Of a DNA stretch of 63,158 nt, positions 24,753 through 63,158 are shown one piece after another. Within the stretch, counting starts at the first letter, position 1. Every line of letters begins with the position of its first letter. The DNA is from Fonticula-like sp. SCN 57-25 (Eukaryota). The notes beneath the pieces were generated by a model that was not told the DNA's origin, ran no database searches, and saw nothing but the letters and a program-made list of their open reading frames with translations. The DNA is taken from assembly GCA_001724245.1 (NCBI GenBank), contig MEDX01000007.1, forward strand, positions 1-63,158, given 5' to 3'. The position numbers and the translations under genes are program-made.

Positions 24753-27700
24753 ATGAATGCGGACGCTGTGCGCGCGCTCCTCGATCGTGCGTCCGACGAC
24801 GAGGTACGTTACCATACACACACCGTAAGTGTATTCTTACTTATATGTAGGTTTCGGTGGCGCTTGATCGCGCGCTGGCCGACGGTCATGCACCCCAGCT
24901 CGTTGACACGATCCTCGCCCTGGACGACGCCCCTAGCCGCGGGCGCATGTTTGCGCATCTTTTAAGGGTATTACCGAATGCGCCAGAGAAGGCTGCAATG
25001 CGCGTTGTCGGCCAGCTGCTTGGTGTACTAGACACATTTGATATCGATGCGCTTGTGTCGGCGACCGAGAGCATCCTACAGAGCATCTACAAGGGGACGT
25101 GCGGGCAGGGCGCCGTCCTCGAGCTCCTCCCCCGTCTCCTCTCCATTCTATCGCAGCAGCCTCGCTTGGCTGAAGGCGGAGCTGACCTGCAGACAGGCGC
25201 AGAGTTTGTGGAGCGCGCCCTTCAGCGCCTCTGCGAGAAGCGGTGGCCGTCGGCCGTCGCGGTTCGCCTGACCACCGTCCTCCGCGACAGCGATTTGGCC
25301 GACTCGCACCGCGACCTCATCCTACACGCAGCTCTCCGCCACCTCGGTCATGTGGATATCCATGAGCTGCCGTCCCTCACCTACCAAATCCTGTTGCTGG
25401 CGCGCAAGCCAGCCTCGCGGCAGCTTGCGCTTAAAAGTATCCTGGCCCAGATGGACTCCCTCTCTCGTCAGGTGGTCGTATCGCAGCAGGCCACCGGCCC
25501 CACGGGCGGCAGCAGCAGCCGCAGCATTGCCGAAAGCGACGAGAGCATCCGCAGCGTTGGTACCTCGCGCACCGTCCTTCGGCAGGTGCAAGGTAACTGC
25601 CTGCTGCACATCAACTTTGCCATCAAGCAGGATCATGTGCGCCTTTGCGCTGATGGTGCATCTTTTACTAACATTCTTTTCTTTTCAGGAACTCGGCCAG
25701 CTGATTATCAAGGTGGTCCGGTCGCTCGCGGGCGCCGGCATGACGTCATTTAATATGGCGCTGCTGCTGTCGGTCGCCCTCGTGAGCCACTTTGAGGACG
25801 CTGCGATTGGTGCGCTCAAGAGCGGCCTCTGGGCGCGCCTCAACGACGACGTGATGCGCGCCTCGAACGCGTGGCTTGCAAAGGCCGACGCCTCGGACGA
25901 TGACGCAGCCGATGCCGACGCGACGGTTGTTCTGCGGGACATTGTGGCGAGCTCCGCGGACGGGTGGGACCACGTCCTCCCTGCCTTTGTACGGCTCGGC
26001 GCCTGCCTCGTGGACGCCTACGCGGGCAAGCTGTCGAGCAGGAGCATGTGCGACATCCTGGCCGACTCGACGGACGACGCGGCATGCACTCTTGGCACCG
26101 CAAACGACCGCGCTTTCCGACTCGGCCTCGTCATGCTCCACAGCGCCTTTGCCGTACGTCTAGTTTATCGTCGTCGCTGAATGCTAAATGATACACAGAA
26201 ACACGAGCAGTCTCGAGGCGAGATTTTGTCGATGATGAGCGCGCGCCTGCTGAACCGGTCGCCGAGCGCGGGCGCCTTTGTTGCGCTGCTGAGGCGGATT
26301 GTGGCGACGTGCCCACACGCGCTGCTCGAGCAGCTGCAGCGCGTCCGCGATATGATTGACATTCTGGCGTACCTCCCGCTGCCCGTCGCGTCGGCCTTTT
26401 TGGCCGCCATCCGGCCGGTCATCACGCTCAACGTCGCCTTTCAGGACCATTTGGTTCTCGTATTGCGCAAGGCCATCTTTGCAAAGTGCGACACTGCTGC
26501 TACCTGCCTGTTGTCTGACACGCGTCATTAGGGAGATGGAGGCGCGCAAGGTGGCGGTCGCCGGCGTGCTGATGCTTCTTGGCGCGGGCGACGCGGGCGC
26601 CGTCCCTCAGTTTTCACAGCGCGCCTTTTCGCAAGACGCGCGCTCCTCTGCGCCCCCGCCCGCTGCTCTGTCTGCGGGCGAAGTGCTCGCGATCCTGCGC
26701 CGCTGCCTTTCGCAACAACCCGACGTTCGTCTGAGCCTCTACGTGGGTCTGCACCGCGCCGTAACCGACATGCCTCACCTCGCTGTCGACGTGCTCTCGG
26801 TGCTCGAGCCGCACTTTTCAAAGTACTTTGACCCCGATGGCGCGCAGCGCAACCCGTTCCGCACGTCGCTTTGCCTTGAGCAGCAGTCGGGCGCGCAGGG
26901 CGTGCACACATTGGTTGAACCGCTTCCGCAGCTGCTCGCCGTAGTGTGCCGCTGCGTGTCGGTGTCGTCGGCGCAGGCCGGTGCGGCCTCGGACGCGCGC
27001 CTTCAGCATCTCGGCGGCGCCCTTCGCGAGGCGTGCGCGCGCCTTTCCCGCGCCGAGCTTGACGACTTTGGGCTGAGCCGCGCGAGCGACATGAACCCTG
27101 CAACGGCCGCCGGCAGCCGCAACCTCATGACGGCCGCCACAATTGTGTGCTGCATCGAGGTGCTCATGGAGTTTGTCTTTAGCGGCGGGGAGAGATCCAT
27201 GGAGAGCTGCAACCTCATCGTGGCGCTCTTTCACCGCCGTGACGCGCTCATGGCGCTCGCCCGCGACGCCCACGCTGCGCCCGCCGCCGCCCCGGCCACC
27301 GCTGCGGCGACCGCCACGGCTGCGACGGCGGCCGACGCGCACATCAACTCGGGCGTCCACTCGATCGAGTTTGCCGCCGCCTTTTGCCGCTTCATGTTTT
27401 CGGACAATGACCCGCACAACCTGTCGGCGCAGAATGTACTGCGCGCCGAAAAGCCGCTGTTGCGTATGGCGGCGGGCCTCGCGGTACAGTGCCCCGACAC
27501 AGCGCCAGCGCTCGACGCGCCGATGCCCGACCGCGTGTTTGTGAACGCGTGCCTGCTTGGCCGCACGCTCGTGCACGACGTCGCCATGGCGCAGCAGATG
27601 CGCGTGGCGTCGACCGGTCCGGCCGCCAAAGAAAAGGTGCGTGCTTTGCTATTCTATTTGCGCGAGGCTAACAATAAAACCTTTTAGCGAATTGCGTCGA

Positions 27701-29068
27701 TTGCACTTGAAGGGTTTCTTTCGCTGTTCGAGTCCGTCGTTCGGCTGGCGCCGTCGCGAGCGGCCTCTTTCCTTGTGCACACGGCCGGCTCGAGCGGCGG
27801 AGACGACAGCGCTTCGCTACGGGCCGCCTTTGTATACTTTCAAGAGGCAGTGGTGACGCTTGTGGTCGAGCGCGTGCCAATGTACCGCGAGGCGGGCCTG
27901 CTGGTCGGCGCGCTCGAGTCGCTGCTGGCTGGTGGCCTTCTTTCGCAGCCGCTGCGCACCGAGCTGCTCGCGGGCATGTCGGCGTGGCTCGCCACGCTTT
28001 GCGAGGACCAAAACATTGACGACCTCTCGTTCGCGCGCGTCGCCTTTCAGTTTCTCTTTTCCACCGCGGCGTCATCGGCCGACCTCGCCGTTCTTCGCAA
28101 CGCCGTGCGCGACGCGCGTCGGCTGCTTGGCGACATTTTTGAAAAGGACGGCGACGCGGCGGGCGACGACGACATCCGCGGCGACGGTACTGTCCAGATG
28201 GCGGCGGTGAACGCCAAGACGGTCGTGGCGGTGTCTGCGCTCGCGGTCGGCGGAATCGACGCGCTGCTGGCGGGCGCCGAGTGGGGGCTGTCATACGCGC
28301 GCGCGCTCGACGCAGCGCACACGGACGCCGAGGATGGCGCCAAGGGCCGCGCGGCACGCATCGTCGCCGCCGTATCGGAGCGGACGACGCGCGCCGTTGA
28401 GCTGCTCAGCGAGCTACTGCAGGCCATCATGACGGGCGCGGGCGCCGAGGCGCTCCTGCGGGCGCTCACTCGCGCATGCAAACTCGTACTGAATATTGCA
28501 AAGTGGTACGGAAAGAACGCGCACGCCGCGGCGCCCAGCAAAGAGTTTGTCGCGCTCATCGACCTCGTGCTCGGCCGCCTCACTGACGACGCCTACCGTG
28601 CGACATTTCTTATGGCCACACGCCCACTCACACTTTACAGAGTTTATCCCGTTCTGGCAGACGTCCGATCTCGAGAATGCGCGTCTGCAGGCCGAAGCAC
28701 GCGGCGGCGTCGGTGGCGATGGAAAGGGAAAGCGCAAAAAGGGCGCGGCGTCGAATGCGGCGCAGCGCGCGCGCATTTCACGCGAAAGCAAGCTGCTGCC
28801 CAATCTCATCTTTTCCATCGAGCACATGGAGCGGCAGCTCGTGCAGCTCGCCAAGGCGACAAAGGTGCGACTTTTTTCTTTCATGCCCACGTGTCTAATT
28901 TATCTCTAGGTGAACCTTCTCAAGAACTGGAAGCGTGGCGCCGCGCGCGACTTTCGTATCCAGGTTGGCCAGGTGGCGCAGGTGCTGCAGGCCGGCGGCG
29001 GCGACGATGGCGACGGCGACGACGCCGGAAAAGGCCCCGCCAAGCGCGCGCGCACCGACGCTGCGTAG
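24753..29068 (+). CDS. FANCI: Fanconi anemia group I protein
   Basis: ELPSLTYQILLL, VQGN.LLHI.FAIKQD.ELG, LVLVLRKAIFA...ARK.AV.G (monoubiquitination Lys region), SQ motifs, LRRCLSQQ.DVR..LY, C-terminal RESKLLPNLIFSIE..E..L..L.K.TKVNL.......RDFRI. Confidence 0.92.
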
Positions 29069-29180
29069 CACTGTGTACAAGAGAGCAAGTTGATATAGTG
29101 TAAACATGTTTGTTGCTGTTGTACAAAAGAGGCAAATGGTATCAATGTAGCAATAAAGTAATAATAGTTGCATAGTTTTG

Positions 29181-35302: not shown

Positions 35303-38300
35303 CTACTCCTGCTCCTGGCGTCTGCGCGTGGCAGACTCCTCCTCGAGCCTATCGGCTTCGTTGAACCTGTCGACGAGGCCCTGCACCATCGACTTGATTG
35401 AGAGGAGCTCGTCCATGACCTTGTCGTCGTCCTGCTGGAGGCAGAGCGCGCGGCCGACGGGGTACCACGAGGTCTCCTGGCGGTCGACGAGGTCCCTGAC
35501 GTACGCCTCGTAGGCGGTGTACTCGGTCGTCTCGGTCTGGAGCAGGTGCGCCGTGAAGAAGAGGTAGTTCCACTGGTTGTGCTCGTTCTTGCAGTGGTAG
35601 TCGAATCCGACGCCGGCACGGTCAAAGTCGTACGAGCGCAGCGAGCACACAAAGCAGGCGTTGCTCATGTCCTCCTCGGCCTGGTAGCGCGCGTCGCGCA
35701 GCTCAGAGAAGGTGTCGACAATGATACCAAAGACAATGTTGAGGCCGATGACGGCGACGATGATGTAGAACGAGAGGTCAAAGATGATGCGCAGGCCGAC
35801 CGCGCTCCACGTGGGGTCCGTTGGCTCCAGCACCAGGCCAAGGGGCTCTTGCAGACCCATCGTGAGGCACGTGAGGAAGCACTGCCACATGTTTTCACAC
35901 CACAGGTAAATGTTTTGGGACGGGTCAAACGACGCGCGCAAAAAGGCAAAGCTGACAACCGAGTAGATATAAATCACTATGATGGCGAGCATGAGCACGT
36001 TGAGCAGCGAGAGGCCGTTCTGCGTGATGGAGCGCAGCACACGCTTGAGAATATCATTGTTGGCGATAACATGGAGCAGATGGAAGCAGTAAAAGTAGCC
36101 CGACGTGGCAATGCCGGCGACCGAGCAGGCAAAGAACACCAGGTGGTACAGGTTGGAGAACCTCAACACGTCCCCGGCCGACTGGACCGGGTGGCCCATA
36201 AAGTGCGCCGATACAACGAGGAACGATATCAGTATGTGCGCGGCGCCCAGCGCGTAGATCACGGGCTGGTACCAGGACTCGACGACGGGCATGATCACGG
36301 TCGGGTCGGGGTCGGCCTGCCAGGTGGCCAGGATAAGGATGTTGATGCCGAGGGTCAGGGTAAGAATCATAAGGTGCCAGATGTAGGCGTTGAACACGAG
36401 GAAAGTAGCGACGGGGTTGGTCATCAGGCGCTGGTGGTAGCGCATGTGCTCGCGGAGGCCCTCGCACGCCTCGGTAAAGCTCTCAATCTTGCCGGTCGGC
36501 GAGCTGCGGTCAACGTTCCACTGCAGCTCCTCCATCATCGGGCGCGTCAGGGCCTCGCGGTCGCGCACGCGGAAGTACACACGCATGAGCTCGCCCTCCA
36601 TGAGGATCTCAATGGAGGCGGAGTTGTTGCGGAAGAAGGAGATGCGCTCGTAGGCCTCCTGCTGCTCGTGCGAGAGGACGCGCTGCTCCTTGTCCGACAG
36701 CTTCTCCAGCAGCCAATGCGTGCCAAAGCGGTGGCCGACAATGTCGCGCAGGCGCGAGAAGACAAAGTACATCATAAAGCCGGCCTCCTCAAACTCGGCG
36801 GGCGTCGTGGGGCTCTCCGAGTAGCTGATCATGAGGGTGTGCATGGCCTCGAGGTCGAGCGCCGTGCTCAGGTCCATGGCAAGGCGAACGGACTCGCGGT
36901 TGTTCTCCTCGACAACGGTGCGGAGGACCGTCGCGGCCTTCAAGTGCAGATCGGCAACGTCCTCGGCGCTCGCGTTGCCAAAGGTGGACTCGCGGATGAC
37001 CGCGTTGACCACATCAACGATCTTGCCGTCGTACAGCTGCAGCTTGTTCTGCATGTTGCCCGACGAGAACTCGTTGAGCGTCTCAAAGATCTGGCGGACG
37101 AGGTCAATCGACTCGTGGTCAATGTTGACGTAGATGATGTGCAGGTAGTCGAGCGTCGCCGCCACCAGGTTGTACTGGTTGATGTGGTCGGGCTGCTCGC
37201 GGAGATAGTTCTTGATCTCGTCGTTCTGGTTCTCGCACAGCAGCTGCAGGATGCGCAGCAGCAGCTCGACAAAGCCAACAACGTTCTTGAACTGGAGGGC
37301 GGCCTGCTGGTCGTCGTCGTCGTCCTCCACCGGCGGCGGCGGCGGCGGAGCGGCCGGGGCCGTAACCACCTCCTTCATGGCAAACGAGCTCTTCCTGAGC
37401 GCGCTGCCAAACGAGCTGGTGCTCTTGAGCGGCTCGAGCGGCGGCGAGTCGTTGGCAGACACCGTCATCTCCACGGAGCGCCTCATGCTCTTGCCATAGA
37501 GCTCCTCGAGCGCGGCCTTGTCGCGCGCAGCCTGGGCAATCAGGCCGCGCTGCTCCTTGATGGCGCTGGCGGACTGCTGCAGGCGATCGCGGATGATGGT
37601 GAAGAAGGTCTCGTCCTGCTTGCCGCGGAAGAACTCGACAAAGGACTTTTGGACCAGCGGGTTGCCGCCAATGAGCATCATGACAAGGAGGCGGAGCGCG
37701 GCGCGCTCCACGACAGGCGCCTTGGAGGCCATCAGCTCCACAGCGACGGCGGCCACATGGTTGTCATTGAGCTCGGCCTGGATCTGCTGCGTGGTGGCCT
37801 TGACTACTTCATTCGCTTCCTCGACAAAAGGACCGTCCTGCAGCTTGAGGTACTCGTTGGAAATGATGGCGCGCAGCAGGCGGAGGTGCTTGACGTCGAG
37901 CGCGATCTGGTTCTCCTTGTCGCGGTCCGACATAAACGGGAAGGCCTCGAGCGAGACGCGCAGCGAGCGGACGATCTGGAGCGTCCACGGCTTGATGGCC
38001 ACAAACTCGCGGTTGCGGCGGTACTGCACAAAGGCCGCAATGTGCTGCTGGAACTCTTCACCGCGCCAGAGACCGCCCAGCATCGCGTCCGGGTCGGTGT
38101 CGTAAGCCGGGCAGGTCTTGTCGCTGCGGTACGACGACTCCATGTTGGAGACAAACTTGCGCAGGCTGCGCATGATCTCGAGCTGCGTCGAGTACGCCGC
38201 CAGGAAATTCTGGACGGCAAAGTTGGCCGGCTTGCGTCCGCCGGCGGCCTTGTGAGCAACGATCTCGTCATAGCGAGCCTGCTGCTCCTCGGTGGCCCAG

Positions 38301-41300
38301 CCGGCCTGATCGAGGGCCACGAGGGCGGTGCGCAGCTTGCGGACGCGGAGCTTGGTCGCGTACAGCGGCGACTGCAGGATACGGTCGTAGAACGCCAGGA
38401 GGCTCGACATGATCTGCGAGGTGATGGCCTTGTGGTCGGGGCACAGCTTGTCGATCATGCCCGACTTGGAGTAGTGGTTAAGGTAAAACTCCTTGACAAA
38501 CTCAAAGACGCCCTCGCGCATGGTGTAGTCATCCTGCACACCCTCGGGGGTGTCGAGCAGGTGGTCGAGGTCCTTGGCGCTCACCTCCTGCACCTTGGAG
38601 TTCATCATGCTGAGGAACGTCCACATCTGGGGGTTGAGGTCAATGTCGGACGCCTTTCCGGGGCCCATCGACGTCGAGAGGTAGGCCCAAAGAAGGAAGC
38701 GCAGGTACGGGCGCTTGTTGTTCATAGCAATAGAGGGGTGCGTGAGCACCTCGAAAATCTCGGCCGGGTCAAAGATGTTTTGGCAGACGGACTCGACAAA
38801 GGGGTTCTCGCCCTCGCAGCACGAGGCCAGGAAGCGGATGAGGCGGACGTGGTAGTTCAAGGCGTGCTTGTCCTCGGGGCTAAGGGTGCCCTGGCTTTCC
38901 TCGACGAGCAAGCGCATGCGCTCCTCATTCTCGGAATCGGACATGAGCGTCAGCGTCGTGGTGCGCTGCTGCATCATGTACTTGACGGCGAGGCTCTGGT
39001 TGCGGCGGATCGGGACGTCGCCCACGCGCACGACGGCGTTGAGCAGCACGAGCAGCTCGGGGGCCTTGGTCTTGGCGAGCAGCTGAATAATGGAGTGGAT
39101 CTGCCTTTCCTGCAGCTTGATGCACATCTCGTTCGACGTGAAGATCTCGGCAAGGGCAAGCGCCATGTTGGGCACCGACACCTCGCGCTCAATGAAAAAG
39201 TCGAGGTGCGCGAAAATGTCGAGCTGGATCATGCGCTGGATTCCGTCCGTGTCCAGCTTGGGATCACGGCGAGCAAAGGCGGCGAGGAACATGAACGCGG
39301 CATCGTACACCTTGGCCATGCCGCTGTAGGCCTCCAGCTTGATGTCGTAGGGCTTCTCGAGGAGAGCGTAGACGTCAGCGAGAATGCCCGAGCTAAAGAG
39401 AATCTGCTGGTTGATGACGTGCGGCTTGGTGCGGTCCTCCTGCAGGATGCAGTACTCGCGGAACGCGTTGAAGCTGTTCACCATGGTAGCCTCGCCAGAC
39501 GTCGTGAGCTTGGTGCGCAAAAGGCGGCGGATGGCCGGCACCTTCGAGGCGACATCCTTGTAGACCGAAACAGCGTCGGGCTGGACGATAAGCTGGCACA
39601 CCTGGCCAGACTCGAACAAATGCTGAATCTTGGAAAAGTGGCGGTTCACGAGCGACATGCCAAGCGTGGCCATCTTGGTGTAGTCGTACAGCGTGAGGTC
39701 GAGGAGCACCTCCACGACCCGGTCGTCGTTGCTGATAAAGTCCGTGCGGCTGTCGAGGCTCGCAAGGTACGCCTTGACCGGCGGGGCTTCCATAGCGCCC
39801 GTAACGCACGACGTGATCGACGCCAGCTCGGACCCAAGGTTGAGCAAAAGGCTAGCCGACGCCTTGGAGACTGACATCTTGACAGACTGGCCAATCGTGT
39901 TGTAGATCGACTTGAAGTTGAAGAGGAACTCGGCTGTGCGCAAGACGGCGCGCTGGTTGAAGAGAATGTCGAGCAGGAGCAGACCCGCATACTTGGCATT
40001 CACAACCGCCTTATTCTTGCGAGTCTTGGTAATGCGGAGCGTCGCGCGCCACTGCTTGAGCTCATCGTGGTTGAGGTGCGAGTTGTGCGACGGCACGTCC
40101 GTGTGGCCATCGAGCAGCTTGATAAGCAACGGCACCAGCTGGGTGGCATCTTCGCTCGAATAGTAGCCAAAGTTGACCAGCTGGGAAAGCAGGTGGAACA
40201 GCTGCTCCGTGAACGCGTTCTGCGCCTCCTCCTCATGCGACATGACATGGTTATGGGAGAGGTACTTGACGGCAAAGTCGCGCAGATCAGGGTAGCAGGC
40301 GAGCTTGGCACCCGACACGCTCATAGTCTCATCGGCGACCTTCTTCTGCGCGACGAGCTGGTCCCACAGGAAGGTTGTCGAAGGATTGCTAAAGATGCGG
40401 CGGTTACCCTTCACGTTCACAAACACGTTCTGAACAAAGTCGACAAAGGCCGAGCGGAGCATGTACGGGACGGTCTCGTCGCGGATGGCGCGGATAACGA
40501 GGTCATACGGAATGGCCTTGGAGAGCAGGCCAATGTTGCGATCGTTGCGACCCATGCAGACGCGGCTCATGACGCGCACCTGAGAGGCAAGGTACTGCAT
40601 GTGGGTCTTGTTCTCGGAGAACTTGTCAAGCGAAAGCCAGGCGTCCTTGGGCTTGAAGCGCGCGCTGATGCTGTTGCCCTGCATCTGGAACTGGGCGAGA
40701 ATGCCGAGGTCAGCCGACTCGGCAGAGAGGTAGTCCCAGACCAGCTGCTGGTTCTGGGGGATGGCGCTCTCTTCGCAGACGCAGAGGAGGCTCAAAAAGT
40801 CGAGGAAGCTGCGGTCGTGTGTCTTCTTGAGCCAAAACACAAAGGAGGAGATCTGCTGCGCGCTAATGCGGTCGAGAATCTGCTGATTGTCCGCGACAAG
40901 CTGCATAAACATGGCAGGGGTGTGCATGTCATAGCCGATCTGCGACTGGAAGAAGCTAATGTACTTGGCAATGTACAGCTCGTTCTTGCGGGAGTCGCCG
41001 TCGAGGTACACCGCGAGCAGATCGTAGGCCGTCTGGCAAATCTTCTTGAGCTTGGGGAAGTTGGGCAGCTCTTCAAGATCAATGCCTGTCTTGTTGAAGC
41101 CCTCCACAAACGCAAAGCCCTCCGGGGGCTTGAACAGCACCTTGAGCATGCCGACGAGAATGTCGACCACGCGCAGCTGGCGAAGCAGCTTTTGGCGCTT
41201 ACGCTCGGGTGTGCCGCTGTCGCCCTCCACAAACTTGATGAGGTGCTGCAGCACGCGGTAGAGCACCTGGAAGACCATGGGGTCGAGGCGCTGAATCTTT

Positions 41301-42821
41301 GCGTCCTTGTGGCGCTTGATGAACTGCATGAGCTCCTCGAGGGTGCCCATGACAAAGTTGACGTTGTACTCGTAGGTCGGCTCGACGCAAACAATCACAA
41401 AGGCATCGTCGTTCTTGACGTCGTTCTGGGTGGCGACCTTGCGGAGAACGCCATTGTCCCAGCGCAGGCTCTCCATGCCCTCGTTGGAGAGCGCCTTGTA
41501 CTGGTTCAGCTCGTAGGCGTTGAAATCGCCGTGGAGGAACATGCCGCTCGAGCGGTGCTGGATCTTGCCGTACGACATGTTGTCGAGCTCGGGCTTGTCC
41601 TTGATGATGGGGATGAGGCGGAAGACGGACGCCGTGCGGTCCGAGCCGTCCACGAGTCCGACCGAGCGGTCCTTGGAGACACCAAGGTACTTGCGCGTCT
41701 GGACATGGCGGAAGCGCACAAGCTGCACCCACTTCATGGGCTCACCGCAGCCGGCATCGTCGGCCATCTCGATCTGCCAGAACGTGTTGGACGACGGCGA
41801 CTTCAAGGACGGGCTCGCCGTCGGCTTGCGGACGCGCAAATGAACGTCCTCGCCAATGCCAAAGTCCAGGAAGTTTCCCTCGGCCGTCATGTACGCGTCC
41901 ATTTCCTTGTGGACGATATGCACGAGGTTGTTGCCATAAATGGCGTCTTGCTTCTCTTGGGCGAACTTGCGGTGGCAGTGCAGCAAAAAGGCCGACTTGC
42001 GGACCGACGCGTCAATTTCGCGCTGGCCCTCGTACAAGTGCATATGCGGAAGCACATCGTCCGAAATGTGCAAGAACTGGCCGGCCGTCTTGGCGCTCTC
42101 GAGCACGACCTGGTCGTTGACGCGGACAAAGTCGCCCTCGGACTGGATCTTGAAGCGCGGCATGATGCGGAAGTAGCATTCTACGGCAAACCGTCAGCAT
42201 GAATAGACAGGAGCGGGCATCGCGCACGTTTGCTGTTGTCGCCGGAAAGCTCGACGCGCATGTTCATGACGTCGGTGGTGGCGGCCTCGCGGTTGCTGAA
42301 GCGCAGGAAAGAGTGCGACATCACGTGGCGCAGCTGGATGACCTGGCCGTACTTGAGGCCGCGGCCCTGCTGGCGAGCCTGCTCCTTGCGGTTGTCGTTC
42401 TTCTCGGCTTCGACAAGGCGCTCCATCTTGCGGACTTCGTCGTCCTCGCTCAGGTTCTTGCTCTCGAGGGCATTGCGGTACTTTTGCAGGCGCTTGGCGA
42501 CCTTGTACTTCAATGGCGGGAGGATCTAGGGCACGATGTGTGAGCTGAGCCACGGCGCGGCGCAGGATTCAGGCTCGCGCACCTCAAACGACGCTCCCTT
42601 AAAGTTGGGAACCTGCGGGTTCTTCGGGTCCTCGGTCTGGCACAGGTAGAGCGAGGGGCGCACCGAGGCGTCCGTGTAGGCGAAGCCATTGGGCTACAGC
42701 GGGTGTCAGAAAAAGGGCGGCCGGATACAGGGGCGCTTCAACGTCGCACCTCTTCATGATAAAAGCATATTTCGTCTCCAAAGAGGACGGTGTCCAACCT
42801 CGTGTCAGGTTGGTCCCCCAT
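35303..42821 (-). CDS. ITPR: Inositol 1,4,5-trisphosphate receptor-like Ca2+ release channel (~2500 aa)
   Basis: Suppressor domain (YGQVIQLRH..S), MIR beta-trefoil, RQKLLR, RKNELYIAK, RIH-associated LRILQLLCENQN...NYLREQ, TM region with LNIVFGIIVDTFSELR, and C-terminal CFVC...H...EHN.WNY zinc site. Three short 5' exons, then one ~6.9 kb exon. Confidence 0.95.
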
Positions 42822-43079
42822 CCCGTCAAGCAGTTCGTGGAGCTGAAGCGACTACCTTTTTCTTGCCTTTTTTCTCTTTTTTCGGACGATTCTCCATTGG
42901 GTCAACTCGTCTGTCTTTGTGATTCGCGATTGGCTCCTATTGGCTGATCCTTCCCGTTTAGGCAACTGTGATGATCGATGCTTTCAGGGTCACCCGAGCC
43001 TGCCACAAGCCTGTAGCGGCGTTGCGCAACTCTTGCCCCGCTGTTGGTTGGCTGGCCGGGTGCAGGCCGGGTAAGCCCC

Positions 43080-43475
43080 ATGAGCCCGCCGTCGGTCCGA
43101 TGCCAGGCGTGCTACCGACGGCACGAGCGCTGCGCGAGGAGCGAGACAGACGGGGAGCCGTGCGAGCGGTGCGCCAGTAGGGGCGAAAAATGCCTTCCCA
43201 GGAGCTTGGATGCGGAGCAGAGGCCGCTGGTGAAGCGTAAGCGGCTGCCAATGAGCAGCAGCACGGCGGTCAGCAAGGCCGCGGGGCAGGAGGCGCTGCC
43301 GGACGACGCGGCCGAGCACTCGGAGCTGTTGACGCAGCTGCATCATGCGGCCAGTGTTTATTACGGCGCAAGCCGCGGACGGCGGAAAGCGCTAAAGTCG
43401 CTCGATGGAACGGCGTTGGCGGCCCTCGGCATCCTTCTCGAGGAGGCGATGCGCGACGCAATTGAGGACGCTTAG
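43080..43475 (+). CDS. Small protein: Zn(II)2Cys6 cluster plus Rrn10-like (UAF) C-terminal domain
   Basis: CQACYRRHERCARSETDGEPCERCASRGEKC = CX2CX6CX9CX2CX6C. SELLTQLHHAASVYY...SLDGTALAALGILLEE resembles fungal Rrn10-family SDLLKAIH.YAS..Y...SMDETALLALGIL.EE. Confidence 0.7.
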   Translation: MSPPSVRCQACYRRHERCARSETDGEPCERCASRGEKCLPRSLDAEQRPLVKRKRLPMSSSTAVSKAAGQEALPDDAAEHSELLTQLHHAASVYYGASRGRRKALKSLDGTALAALGILLEEAMRDAIEDA

Positions 43476-43562
43476 GAGGCGCAAAGTGTACAGTGCATTA
43501 TCAAAAATTGTATATTGAATTATTAGACGTTGTGTATTGTGAATAATAGTCTGCGTTGTCGG

Positions 43563-45543
43563 TCAAGATACAACCAGCACGCGCACGTAACGACCAGCCG
43601 CTTCTGTGGACGCCTTTTGCAGAACGGCCGCCGGGTCGTCTTTGGATGAGAGTACCATGTGTGGATCAAGCCCACGGTCGTCCGCCGAGCTGGCAACCAC
43701 GACAGTGACGATCCCGCGCTCGTTCTTGTACGAGACCATTTCCGATCCCGCATCACACATGACCCAAATCACGCCCTCCTGCTTGGCCCCAAAGCCTGCT
43801 ACCGCGCCCCGTGCCATGCTGCCGATATTCTCGCTTACACCGACAATCGAGAAAGGTGCCCGGGGCCGCGCAAAGCGCCGCAGTGCCAGCGACATTTCGG
43901 CAGACTCGCACACCACCTTGTCGTCGGGCCCTAGCGGGAGCGCGCCCGCAACCCGATCGGTCAGGGACGATGGCGCGGGAAGAGCACTAAAGTGCGGCAG
44001 CGGCCGCTCATTACGCCTCGCGCGCTTTGCAAACTCCAAAAGGAAGCGGCCCGGCGCGCCCAGAATCACCAAGTGAGGCTCCCTACATACGGTTAGCCAA
44101 TGCACGCGACCCGAGCAGCGCTTCGCACATGTTAAGCGTGAGTTGCAGCTTGCTCTCATTGACGGCGACCACCTGCGCGGTCGCCGGGATCTTGGTGCCA
44201 AAGTCGAACCGGTCATCCACGGGAACGCCCAAAAGAATGACCATGTCGCTCTGCGCAAGCGCCTCGTCGCGCTTCTCATAGGGCACCAGCAGTCCACTGG
44301 CGCGCATGGAGTTAGCCTATAGAGGGAAATGTAGTTGAGCGCACCTTGCTTCGCCAAGCAGGCCGCCAGTCCCATCCATGAGCACAACAGGAATATTCAA
44401 TTTCTCGAGGGCCTTGCTGACATCTTGCGTGAGCGGGCGGTCAAAAAGCGCCTGCGACCCGATAAAGATGAGCGGCGCCGCAGCATTGCCGAGCCGCGTC
44501 GTCGCCTCGCGCATCGCCGGCCCCGCAAACGATGCCGGCCGCCGCGGGCGCACTAAGATTCAACTATTAGTGGGCGCTTTTATAATTGACAATATCGTAC
44601 GCGGGACGGCGGGCCGCACAGACGCGGCATCGGTCGCATACAGGCGCGCAAAGCTGTACTGCAGGAGCATGGAAGCGCCGTCCAAGAGCGCCCCGTACGT
44701 TCTCCGCATCTCCTCCTCGGAAAAGAATAGGTCCGTAATGACGCCGACCACGACAACGCCCTGTTCGGCGGCGGTGGCGGCCGAAAAGGCCTGCTCCACG
44801 GACGAGACGATGCTGCGCATCTGGGGGGCGCGCAGGACCTTTGTCACATGCGCCGACATTGCGGCCTCGAGGTCGACATCTGTCCGCTCGCCGCGCCCGG
44901 TGCGAAGAAGCGCAGACTCTATTGCAATGACAACGACCGCAGAATGCGACCGCTGGGCGCGCATGATCGCCGCCGAAGCGTCCACAAGCACCGGCCCCGC
45001 GTCGACCTAGCCCAGGAGCGCAGTGAGTTTATGACAATCCCAAACGTAGTTTTGCGCACCAGCACCACGCCGACCTTGCCGGTCGCCCAGTAGTACGCGT
45101 CCGCAGCGGCCACGGCTGCGGGCCCGTCGCCGAGCACTGTCACTGCAATGTCGCTGGGGAGGGCAGCAAGGCCCGCGCGCATTGCGTCGCTGCCGGCGTC
45201 ATGCGCAAACACCACGCCCACACCTGATGCCAATCACCAATTAGCGAGCTAGAAGAGCAGATACCCGCACGATCCATACCGTGACGCTGCAGTGCGTCGG
45301 CCAATAGAGCGCTTCCCGTCGGGCATTTTAGCCGGTACGCGCCGGTTCGCAGGTTGGCGCGCAGCTGCCGATCAAGCGTCAACAACTCGATTCCATAACC
45401 TACCTCTATAGCGCTCGTACGAGAAACTTTATCCACGCCGCCCGTCCTACTACACCAACGAGCTTGCGCACGAGCGACAGCGCAAACGCCGCCAGAACGA
45501 CATTCTTTACTGTAATCTGCTTCCGAGCTGCCGCCACCAACAT
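43563..45543 (-). CDS. Degenerate thiamine-diphosphate enzyme, acetolactate synthase-like/ILVBL-like
   Basis: N-terminal hydrophobic anchor, G..LLADALQRHG, A..AADAY...TGKVGV.LV, PL..IGSQ, LNIPV.L.G...GLLG, EAL..SD.VILLG...D.R..FG. Catalytic motifs appear altered. Confidence 0.65.

Positions 45544-60603: not shown

Positions 60604-63158
<2,555 letters not shown>

Follow-up and report, generated by a model that had tools for sequence, protein, structure and literature searches.

A Zn2Cys6 cluster and a divergent Rrn10-like region encoded in one short open frame of a Fonticula-like eukaryote

Introduction

According to the structural account of Baudin et al. 2022 (PMC9020658), the yeast UAF has a hexameric histone-like core that contains Rrn9, Rrn10, Rrn5, two H3, and one H4. 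Within this core, Rrn10 is described as having an H2A-like histone fold that lacks helix 3 and as pairing with Rrn9. In the same account, promoter recognition depends for the most part on the shape of the DNA, and base contacts are very few. The DNA is read via Rrn5, H3, and Rrn9, and Rrn10 is not among the subunits that this account names as contacting DNA; TBP is also held by Rrn9 and Rrn10 (PMC9020658). UAF is called unique to unicellular fungi in a 2025 review (PMC12235521).

Zn2Cys6 proteins are presented in PMC5611559 as overwhelmingly gene-specific regulators. The described clusters that are closest to the one studied here belong to factors of the Gal4/Put3/Leu3 type, represented by PUT3 (1ZME/1AJY), Leu3 (2ER8), and Gal4 (1D66). 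A different use of the cluster is seen in Cep3 of the budding-yeast CBF3 complex, where the Zn2Cys6 cluster is the sequence-reading head of a multi-subunit complex that is not an activator and that works near histone-fold proteins.

Herein, a short gene of Fonticula-like sp. SCN 57-25 (assembly GCA_001724245.1) was analyzed. The window is the whole stretch of 63,158 nucleotides of contig MEDX01000007.1. An original prediction, made from the DNA letters alone, had described at this locus a zinc cluster fused to an Rrn10-like domain and had suggested a UAF-like Pol I promoter factor. In this analysis, an uncultured microbial eukaryote is found to encode a divergent Rrn10-family protein, while UAF is otherwise deemed a yeast speciality.

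One open frame across the domain junction

The gene lies in a stop-to-stop frame at 43017-43475 of the + strand, and the preceding in-frame stop is at 43014-43016. The first ATG of the frame, at 43080, is the predicted start, and a TAG stop at 43473-43475 ends a protein of 131 amino acids. The parts of the gene and its flanks are collected in Table 1. The original prediction had described an ORF of about 131 amino acids with the cysteine spacing CX2CX6CX9CX2CX6C. The spacing was verified to be exact, the frame is intact at 43080-43475 (+), and the C-terminal strings quoted in that prediction were found in the translated ORF. A protein of the same length, P0002, is present in a public protein collection and is 99% identical to the predicted product, P0001.

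Table 1 Features of the fusion gene and its flanking regions.
Feature	Position	Strand	Description
Zn2Cys6 / Rrn10-like fusion gene (P0001)	43080..43475	+	one open frame, 131 aa + stop
Zn2Cys6 binuclear-cluster motif, aa 8-38	43101..43193	+	six Cys: C8, C11, C18, C28, C31, C38
Link from cluster to Rrn10-family region, aa 39-49, low confidence	43194..43226	+	pLDDT <50 for aa 41-72
Rrn10-family homology region, aa 50-129	43227..43466	+	by leave-query-out profile of 119 relatives
Basic patch KRKR, aa 52-55	43233..43244	+	aligns with family L-F-R-R-K-G-A-P
Predicted helix core, aa 82-97, 104-107 (short), and 110-130 (long)	43323..43469	+	AF2 with family alignment, pLDDT 74-85
Divergent intergenic region, presumed shared promoter, 258 bp	42822..43079	.	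between IP3R/RyR-like gene start and ORF ATG; GC3 0.53
AT-rich 3' spacer, 87 bases	43476..43562	.	GC 0.31-0.41 by codon position; common to the converging - strand gene

GC3 was calculated separately for the two halves of the ORF. In the Cys-rich half (nt 43080-43250) the value was 0.825, and in the second half (nt 43251-43472) it was 0.797, compared with 0.87 and 0.73 in two big nearby genes and 0.53 in the same frame directly upstream of the ATG. Since GC3 is gene-like in each half, both halves of the fusion ORF look coding in this frame. The GC content of the genome is about 60%.

The physical continuity of the two halves was verified with contigs from other runs. The domain junction is bridged by record 3 of X2 (43065-43700), record 4 of X4 (42958-43421), and record 7 of X5 (43156-43306). 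Variation was compared over the contigs of four runs (X2, X4, X5, and X8). The contigs of several runs, from different studies, show zero differences inside the ORF where they cover it, and the one position that differs from the contigs of other samples is intergenic (A>G at 42854). An assembly chimera was ruled out because independent contigs span the junction without a difference. Contigs of other organisms account, through short matches, for an apparent joint in X4 (43308/43438) and for the pieces of below 90% in X5 and X8, and these were ignored.

The N-terminal zinc cluster

The test pattern for Zn2Cys6 consisted of six cysteines spaced CX2CX6CX5-12CX2CX6-8C. Over the six reading frames of the 63 kb, it matched a single time, and it was absent from all 200 mononucleotide shuffles of the window. 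This difference indicates that the Cys pattern in the ORF is not due to chance. When aa 8-38 were compared with Pfam Zn_clus (PF00172), the score was 17.8 bits, below the cut-off of 21, and the E-value of 0.0036 is significant for a single protein.

The best PDB sequence match of the cluster by phmmer was PUT3, and the alignment covers all six cysteines, the R-H pair, and the Pro that precedes Cys 4. The query R-R-H-E-R stands opposite K-R-H-I-K of PUT3, and G-E-P-C stands opposite G-N-P-C. The conserved features other than the cysteines are therefore present: R-R-H with the basic residues between Cys 2 and Cys 3, where PUT3 has the same R-H pair, and the Pro before the fourth Cys, which together with the canonical six-Cys spacing is the likeness to the Gal4/Put3/Leu3-type factors as a group. 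Among 1.84 billion representatives, P0006 was the sole phmmer match to the cluster part (E 2e-4, 44% identity over 32 aa). The cluster of P0006 reaches 21.8 bits with Zn_clus, above the Pfam cut-off.

The structure was predicted by AlphaFold both from the single sequence and from the family alignment. In both models, short helices start at each CX2C, at aa 9-13 and 29-33, with pLDDT of about 57-69. With the single-sequence model, the first 12 rows of the Foldseek search were Zn2Cys6 DNA-binding domains, which made up 15 of the 23 rows overall. With the alignment-based model, 16 of 17 rows were Zn2Cys6, and Leu3 was superimposed with an rmsd of 1.7 over 34 columns. Every E-value in both searches was 0.23 or higher, as expected because the cluster has only 31 residues. 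In the Atlas, the ten best named clusters for aa 1-49 all carry Zn_clus, with a score of 0.86 that serves as a lead only.

On the sequence comparisons and the models, the N-terminal part is accepted as a Zn2Cys6 cluster, and it would be expected to bind zinc and DNA. The Gal4-type zinc cluster named in the original prediction is thus supported by the Zn_clus E-value, the alignments with PUT3 and P0006, Foldseek, and the Atlas. The protein differs from the Gal4-type factors in what follows the cluster, since it is without the linker-coiled-coil dimerization element and without the large regulatory/activation domain, and its total length is 131 aa. No coiled coil was predicted after the cluster, and the models have no helix between aa 46 and aa 76 or 81.

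The Cep3 chain, 6GYS_B, is present in both Foldseek lists. Cep3 (6GYS chain B) differs from the query in its length of 600 aa, in belonging to another family, in being without an Rrn10-like part, and in acting in a different complex and at a different locus. The likeness of Cep3 to the query would be a functional analogy only.

The Rrn10-like region

The direct comparison of the protein with Pfam UAF_Rrn10 (PF05234) gave 12.6 bits and an E-value of 0.16, with aa 101-130 on model positions 85-114 and a cut-off of 20.8, a match that is worthless on its own. The original prediction had proposed to search the protein with Zn_clus and UAF_Rrn10; both domains were matched, and both direct scores are under the Pfam gathering cut-offs.

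The relatives of the region were found by phmmer, which gave P0004 (E 5.4e-6, 52% identity) and also P0005 and P0007, all of which share aa 70-130. The top Pfam match of each of these three proteins is UAF_Rrn10, with E-values of 0.0018-0.037 at only 14.7-19 bits. A profile of 4 sequences then matched 677 proteins, some of them with a precomputed PF05234 annotation, and one of them, P0042, is entered by its source as 'UAF complex subunit Rrn10'. We take the named proteins among these profile matches to be hypothetical proteins of ascomycete moulds and lichens. In the alignment of the best 120 of the 677 matches, PF05234 was matched at E<=0.01 by 99 sequences, with a best E-value of 3e-7. The sole PDB match of the 120-sequence profile at E<=10 was yeast Rrn10 (7z0o_F, residues 56-110), with E 0.14 and 15.2 bits.

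The query was then scored with a profile from which it had been left out. This profile of 119 relatives gave 53.3 bits over aa 50-129, with an E-value of 1.7e-12 in a search space of 1e6. No other ORF of the 959 in the window was matched, and 2000 shuffles of aa 70-131 peaked at 6.4 bits. The nearest clusters of the tail in the Atlas, which is based on a language model, are UAF_Rrn10, with a score of 0.91. The Rrn10-like domain of the original prediction is upheld by the score with the relatives' profile, by the PF05234 matches of the aligned sequences, and by yeast Rrn10 as the sole PDB match.

Yeast Rrn10 in the PDB was not found by direct phmmer, and the 4-sequence profile gave chance rows only. 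In the structure comparisons, 7z0o_F was absent from both Foldseek lists and from the wide VIA-align search. Histone-fold chains appeared in the VIA rows at low rmsd, namely 3v9r_C (2.5 A over 55, Z 4.4), 1bh9_A (2.2 A over 41, Z 4.0), and 1u35_C (2.3 A over 47, Z 3.9), and none of the three ranks above unrelated helical hairpins. The helical hairpin is too small for a structure search to discriminate. The original prediction was to fall if the protein had neither a profile nor a structure match to Rrn10; the profile matches were found, and the fold searches did not return 7z0o_F.

As judged by sequence profiles, the tail thus belongs to the Rrn10 family as Pfam defines it, and it is divergent and shortened at the C-terminus. 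The tie between the family of the relatives and the biochemically defined yeast Rrn10 is weak in score, yet consistent. Apart from yeast Rrn10, we know of no family member that has been tested.

Several features are common to the query and yeast Rrn10 (7Z0O chain F). Both are small proteins, and the conserved part is a helix, a loop, and a long helix, in the query by prediction. The profile match spans the ...H-x-Y-A... and D-E-T-S-L...L-G-L-L-I-E blocks. In the query, the helix core corresponds to the conserved block ...S-L-D-G-T-A-L-A-A-L-G-I-L-L-E-E..., which is aligned to yeast Rrn10 residues 56-110. The query model has helices at 82-97 and 110-130 and then ends, and the fold of yeast Rrn10 is without helix 3 in the description of Baudin et al. 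(PMC9020658). The predicted helices are compatible with this H2A-like fold. The differences are that yeast Rrn10 is without a zinc cluster and that the sequence similarity is weak (E 0.14 via the profile).

Similarity was also found with the Rrn10-like family of filamentous ascomycetes (for example P0004, P0005, and P0007), with 40-52% identity over the core. This family is large and mostly unannotated, and its members are mostly entered as 'hypothetical protein'. A basic L-x-[KR]-R-K-x-x-P stretch is also common to the query and this family. The original prediction had read the KRKR of the query as an NLS-like element. The four residues are in place at aa 52-55, and a separate nuclear signal is doubtful, since they align with the conserved L-F-R-R-K-G-A-P and may be a family feature instead.

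The region departs from its relatives at many positions. The family residues H88, Y95, S107, D109, T111, A112, L113, A115, G117, L119, E121, and E122 are kept. P79 and Y90, which are invariant in the other 119 sequences, are E and A in the query, and D93, K85, Y66, and G129, which are 93-98% conserved in the relatives, are altered. The N-terminal Y-D-A-V-A-G-R-V-G...P-E-E-V-L-F-R-R block of the relatives is absent. The C-terminal G-D-L-x-F-V-E is also absent, as the protein ends before this motif, and so is the long basic tail of the relatives. Because invariant residues are changed and the flanking blocks are absent, the protein is filed as a divergent, shortened, and atypical member. An Rrn10-like protein so derived could have left UAF. 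The kept core block, together with H88/Y95 and the 53.3 bits, suggests that the ancestral partner surface is retained.

Distribution of the fusion

The best 120 of the 677 profile matches, from a search that covered proteins of up to 349 aa, were compared for the presence of the zinc cluster. Neither the Zn2Cys6 pattern nor a Zn_clus match was found in any of the 119 relatives, and the pattern was confined to P0001, the variant P0002, and P0006, which is unrelated. Metagenome loci with a gene for an Rrn10 relative were searched in the same way, up to 3 kb on each side. The zinc-cluster pattern was found in 0 of 59 loci, in a search that an intron-split cluster would escape, and the 12 ORFs inspected from such loci were all of the ordinary fungal type. 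The original prediction had noted that Rrn10 is not known to carry a zinc cluster, and this holds for the relatives and loci examined here. In the literature searched, no description was found of a fusion of Rrn10 with a zinc cluster, nor of Zn2Cys6 in Fonticula, and the one paper that mentions both Rrn10 and a zinc cluster concerns NMD-related expression and has no bearing on the fusion.

Among the family members examined, the fusion protein alone has swapped the N-terminal block for a zinc cluster. The fusion thus looks unique among the relatives examined, and the architecture appears to be new within the known family. That the protein consists of two modules, a zinc cluster and an Rrn10-like part, is considered highly probable.

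Possible roles of the protein

The gene is taken to be real and intronless, with a nuclear protein of 131 aa as its product. The explanation that we favor, with a probability of roughly 0.45, is that this protein serves a UAF-like complex as its subunit of the Rrn10 type, has acquired a zinc head that reads bases, and has a UAF-like role in Pol I transcription. We infer the expression of the gene, the binding of zinc and DNA, the partner, and the Pol I role. The Rrn10-like helices would form a pair with a partner of the Rrn9/H2B type and thereby dock the protein into a UAF-like histone-fold complex. A flexible stretch of about 10 to 40 residues would tether the zinc cluster, which would read a short GC-rich word of the CGG type beside the site of the complex. 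In the other direction, Rrn10 is not one of the yeast UAF subunits described as contacting DNA, and the geometry proposed for a tethered head is accordingly hypothetical. The zinc head would then provide base-specific anchoring of the complex, most plausibly at the rDNA upstream promoter. Because yeast UAF reads mostly shape, the search of the complex for its site would be altered by a head that reads bases. It may be speculated that, in a genome of about 60% GC, the shape code that yeast builds from A-tracts and TA steps could give way to the zinc head.

Should the protein belong to a UAF-like complex, a subunit of a general factor has gained its own sequence reader, and the organism offers a compact natural experiment on the evolution of Pol I promoter recognition. 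A more specific form of this reading is that a UAF-like Pol I factor exists in an uncultured protist outside the yeasts and finds its rDNA promoter by direct base reading via the Rrn10-borne zinc cluster. This form is regarded as doubtful at present. If true, a general Pol I factor would be shown for the first time with a zinc-cluster domain, and the finding would lead directly to the promoter word of an organism that is not amenable to culture. A protein of 131 aa is easy to make, and its DNA word and its partner could be sought in vitro.

The strongest of the alternatives is an autonomous small gene-specific regulator of the Pol II type that has no link to rDNA, in which the helices derived from Rrn10 serve as an oligomerization or partner module in place of the coiled coil. 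This alternative is judged unlikely, and it is the one to be weighed most seriously. It agrees with the prevailing role of Zn2Cys6 proteins as presented in PMC5611559. The loss of invariant residues and of both flanking blocks is as expected after a change of job, and with no coiled coil after the cluster, another module must supply the contacts. On the other hand, the S-L-D-G-T-A-L...G-I-L-L-E-E core and H88/Y95 are kept with 53.3 bits, which suggests an ancestral partner surface, and the 131 aa include neither an activation nor a regulatory domain. If the protein has left UAF, a minimal zinc-cluster regulator has taken over a histone-fold subunit as its partner-binding domain.

It is quite improbable that the gene is a young chimera, formed by a recent domain shuffle, with weak or no expression and an unsettled function, while the working Rrn10, if any, is encoded elsewhere. 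Such a gene would fit a fusion that is seen only in this organism and in the 99%-identical variant, and a truncated and aberrant Rrn10 part. Against it, the frame is intact and free of differences in the contigs of several runs and studies, and the GC3 of both halves is as high as in the large neighboring genes. None of the six cysteines of the cluster is missing, nor are its Pro and basic residues. The gene also occupies a tidy slot between two others, with a divergent promoter region of 258 bp and an AT-rich 3' spacer.

A wrong gene model is rated as very improbable. In this case, translation from Met58 or a downstream transcript start would give a 74-aa Rrn10-like protein, and the Cys stretch would be a 5' leader or a remnant of another gene. 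An in-frame ATG is present at aa 58, and callers of the prokaryotic style gave shorter versions, namely the 89-aa P0124 and an Atlas record that starts from residue 51. These versions start on non-ATG codons (aa 43 and 51 are not Met) and carry no weight for a eukaryote. The homology to the family starts at aa 50, upstream of Met58. The Cys-rich part has a GC3 of 0.825 in the frame, and the full six-Cys cluster never arose in the 200 shuffles. This part is also contiguous with the rest and free of stops from the first ATG after the in-frame stop.

A chance resemblance of the Cys-rich stretch and the helical tail to two families would agree with direct Pfam scores that are both under the cut-off and with fold-search E-values that are all >0.2, but it is refuted for practical purposes by the shuffle controls (0 of 200 with the Cys pattern) and the leave-query-out profile (E 1.7e-12 against a shuffle maximum of 6.4 bits), and independent lines converge on the same two families.

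Genomic neighborhood

Upstream of the fusion gene, on the - strand, lies a giant IP3R/RyR-like gene with its ATG at 42821, of which the first exon was translated. The domains RIH, MIR, Ins145_P3_rec, and Ion_trans were identified in this gene, with Ins145_P3_rec on the second exon. The best named matches are IP3Rs of animals and choanoflagellates at about 30% identity, with one chytrid protein at 10% coverage. These matches indicate no more than a eukaryote whose close relatives have not been sequenced. Downstream, a converging gene on the - strand ends near 43563. It is divergent and TPP-enzyme-like, with weak TPP_enzyme_M/N matches on its pieces.

An extra 3' exon that would carry the G-D-L-x-F-V-E motif of the family was considered and rejected, as no frame in the spacer codes the motif. 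Since the stop and the converging gene lie only 87 AT-rich bases apart, there is no space for a further exon.

The Rfam search of the whole 63-kb window gave 0 matches, and there is no rDNA within the window. A scan of the 51 large window ORFs at E<=1e-5 gave no member of the families Rrn9, Rrn5, Uaf30, H3, and H4. The other genes in the window are of ordinary eukaryotic kinds and include a G-alpha gene, an eRF1-type gene, FANCI, Sec16, and SRP68.

The zinc cluster and the Rrn10-like family

The nearest relative of the zinc cluster in the query, the 131-aa Rrn10-like protein, was P0006, an unnamed record of 376 aa. One canonical Zn2Cys6 cluster was located at aa 244-274 of P0006. A second, degenerate Cys-rich stretch was found at aa 135-190, and the cluster region of the query aligns there too.

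The Rrn10-like family is large and well conserved, with 677 matches at E<=1e-3 (P0004-P0126 in alignment A2; metagenome loci L001-L059), and its members are annotated as "hypothetical protein" almost throughout. One member carries the name "Vacuolar-sorting-associated 25". Some conserved blocks of the family are poorly covered by Pfam PF05234, namely the N-terminal Y-D-A-V-A-G-R-V-G, P-E-E-V-L-F-R-R, and the C-terminal G-D-L-x-F-V-E.

Genes around the Rrn10-like gene

The IP3R/RyR-like gene is composed of small 5' exons and a single exon of 2296 aa, and its identity with animal and choanoflagellate IP3 receptors is only about 30%. Its start codon and that of the Rrn10-like gene are on opposite strands, 258 bp apart. 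Position 42854 is A in the window and G in contigs from three other runs, X2, X5, and X8; this was the sole difference listed within nt 42700-43700 across the four runs compared with the window.

The TPP_enzyme matches in the converging neighbour (E 7e-4 to 4e-3) were scattered across several short frames. Either this gene encodes a thiamine-pyrophosphate enzyme that has diverged strongly and is interrupted by small introns, or it is in decay. SBP_bac_8 is a bacterial extracellular solute-binding protein family, while the rest of the window is eukaryotic; the matching frame may have come from bacteria. The pieces of the FANCI gene of this microbial eukaryote were spread over several frames.

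Table. Other genes and open frames within the window.
Feature	Position	Strand	Matches or domains
FANCI (Fanconi anaemia group I) gene	24851-29100	+	solenoid and helical domains
Giant IP3R/RyR-like calcium-channel gene	35303-42821	-	RIH, MIR, RIH_assoc, Ion_trans
Converging neighbour of the Rrn10-like gene	43563-45300	-	TPP_enzyme_M/N (weak)
428-aa open frame	61081-62364	+	SBP_bac_8 (E 5e-7)
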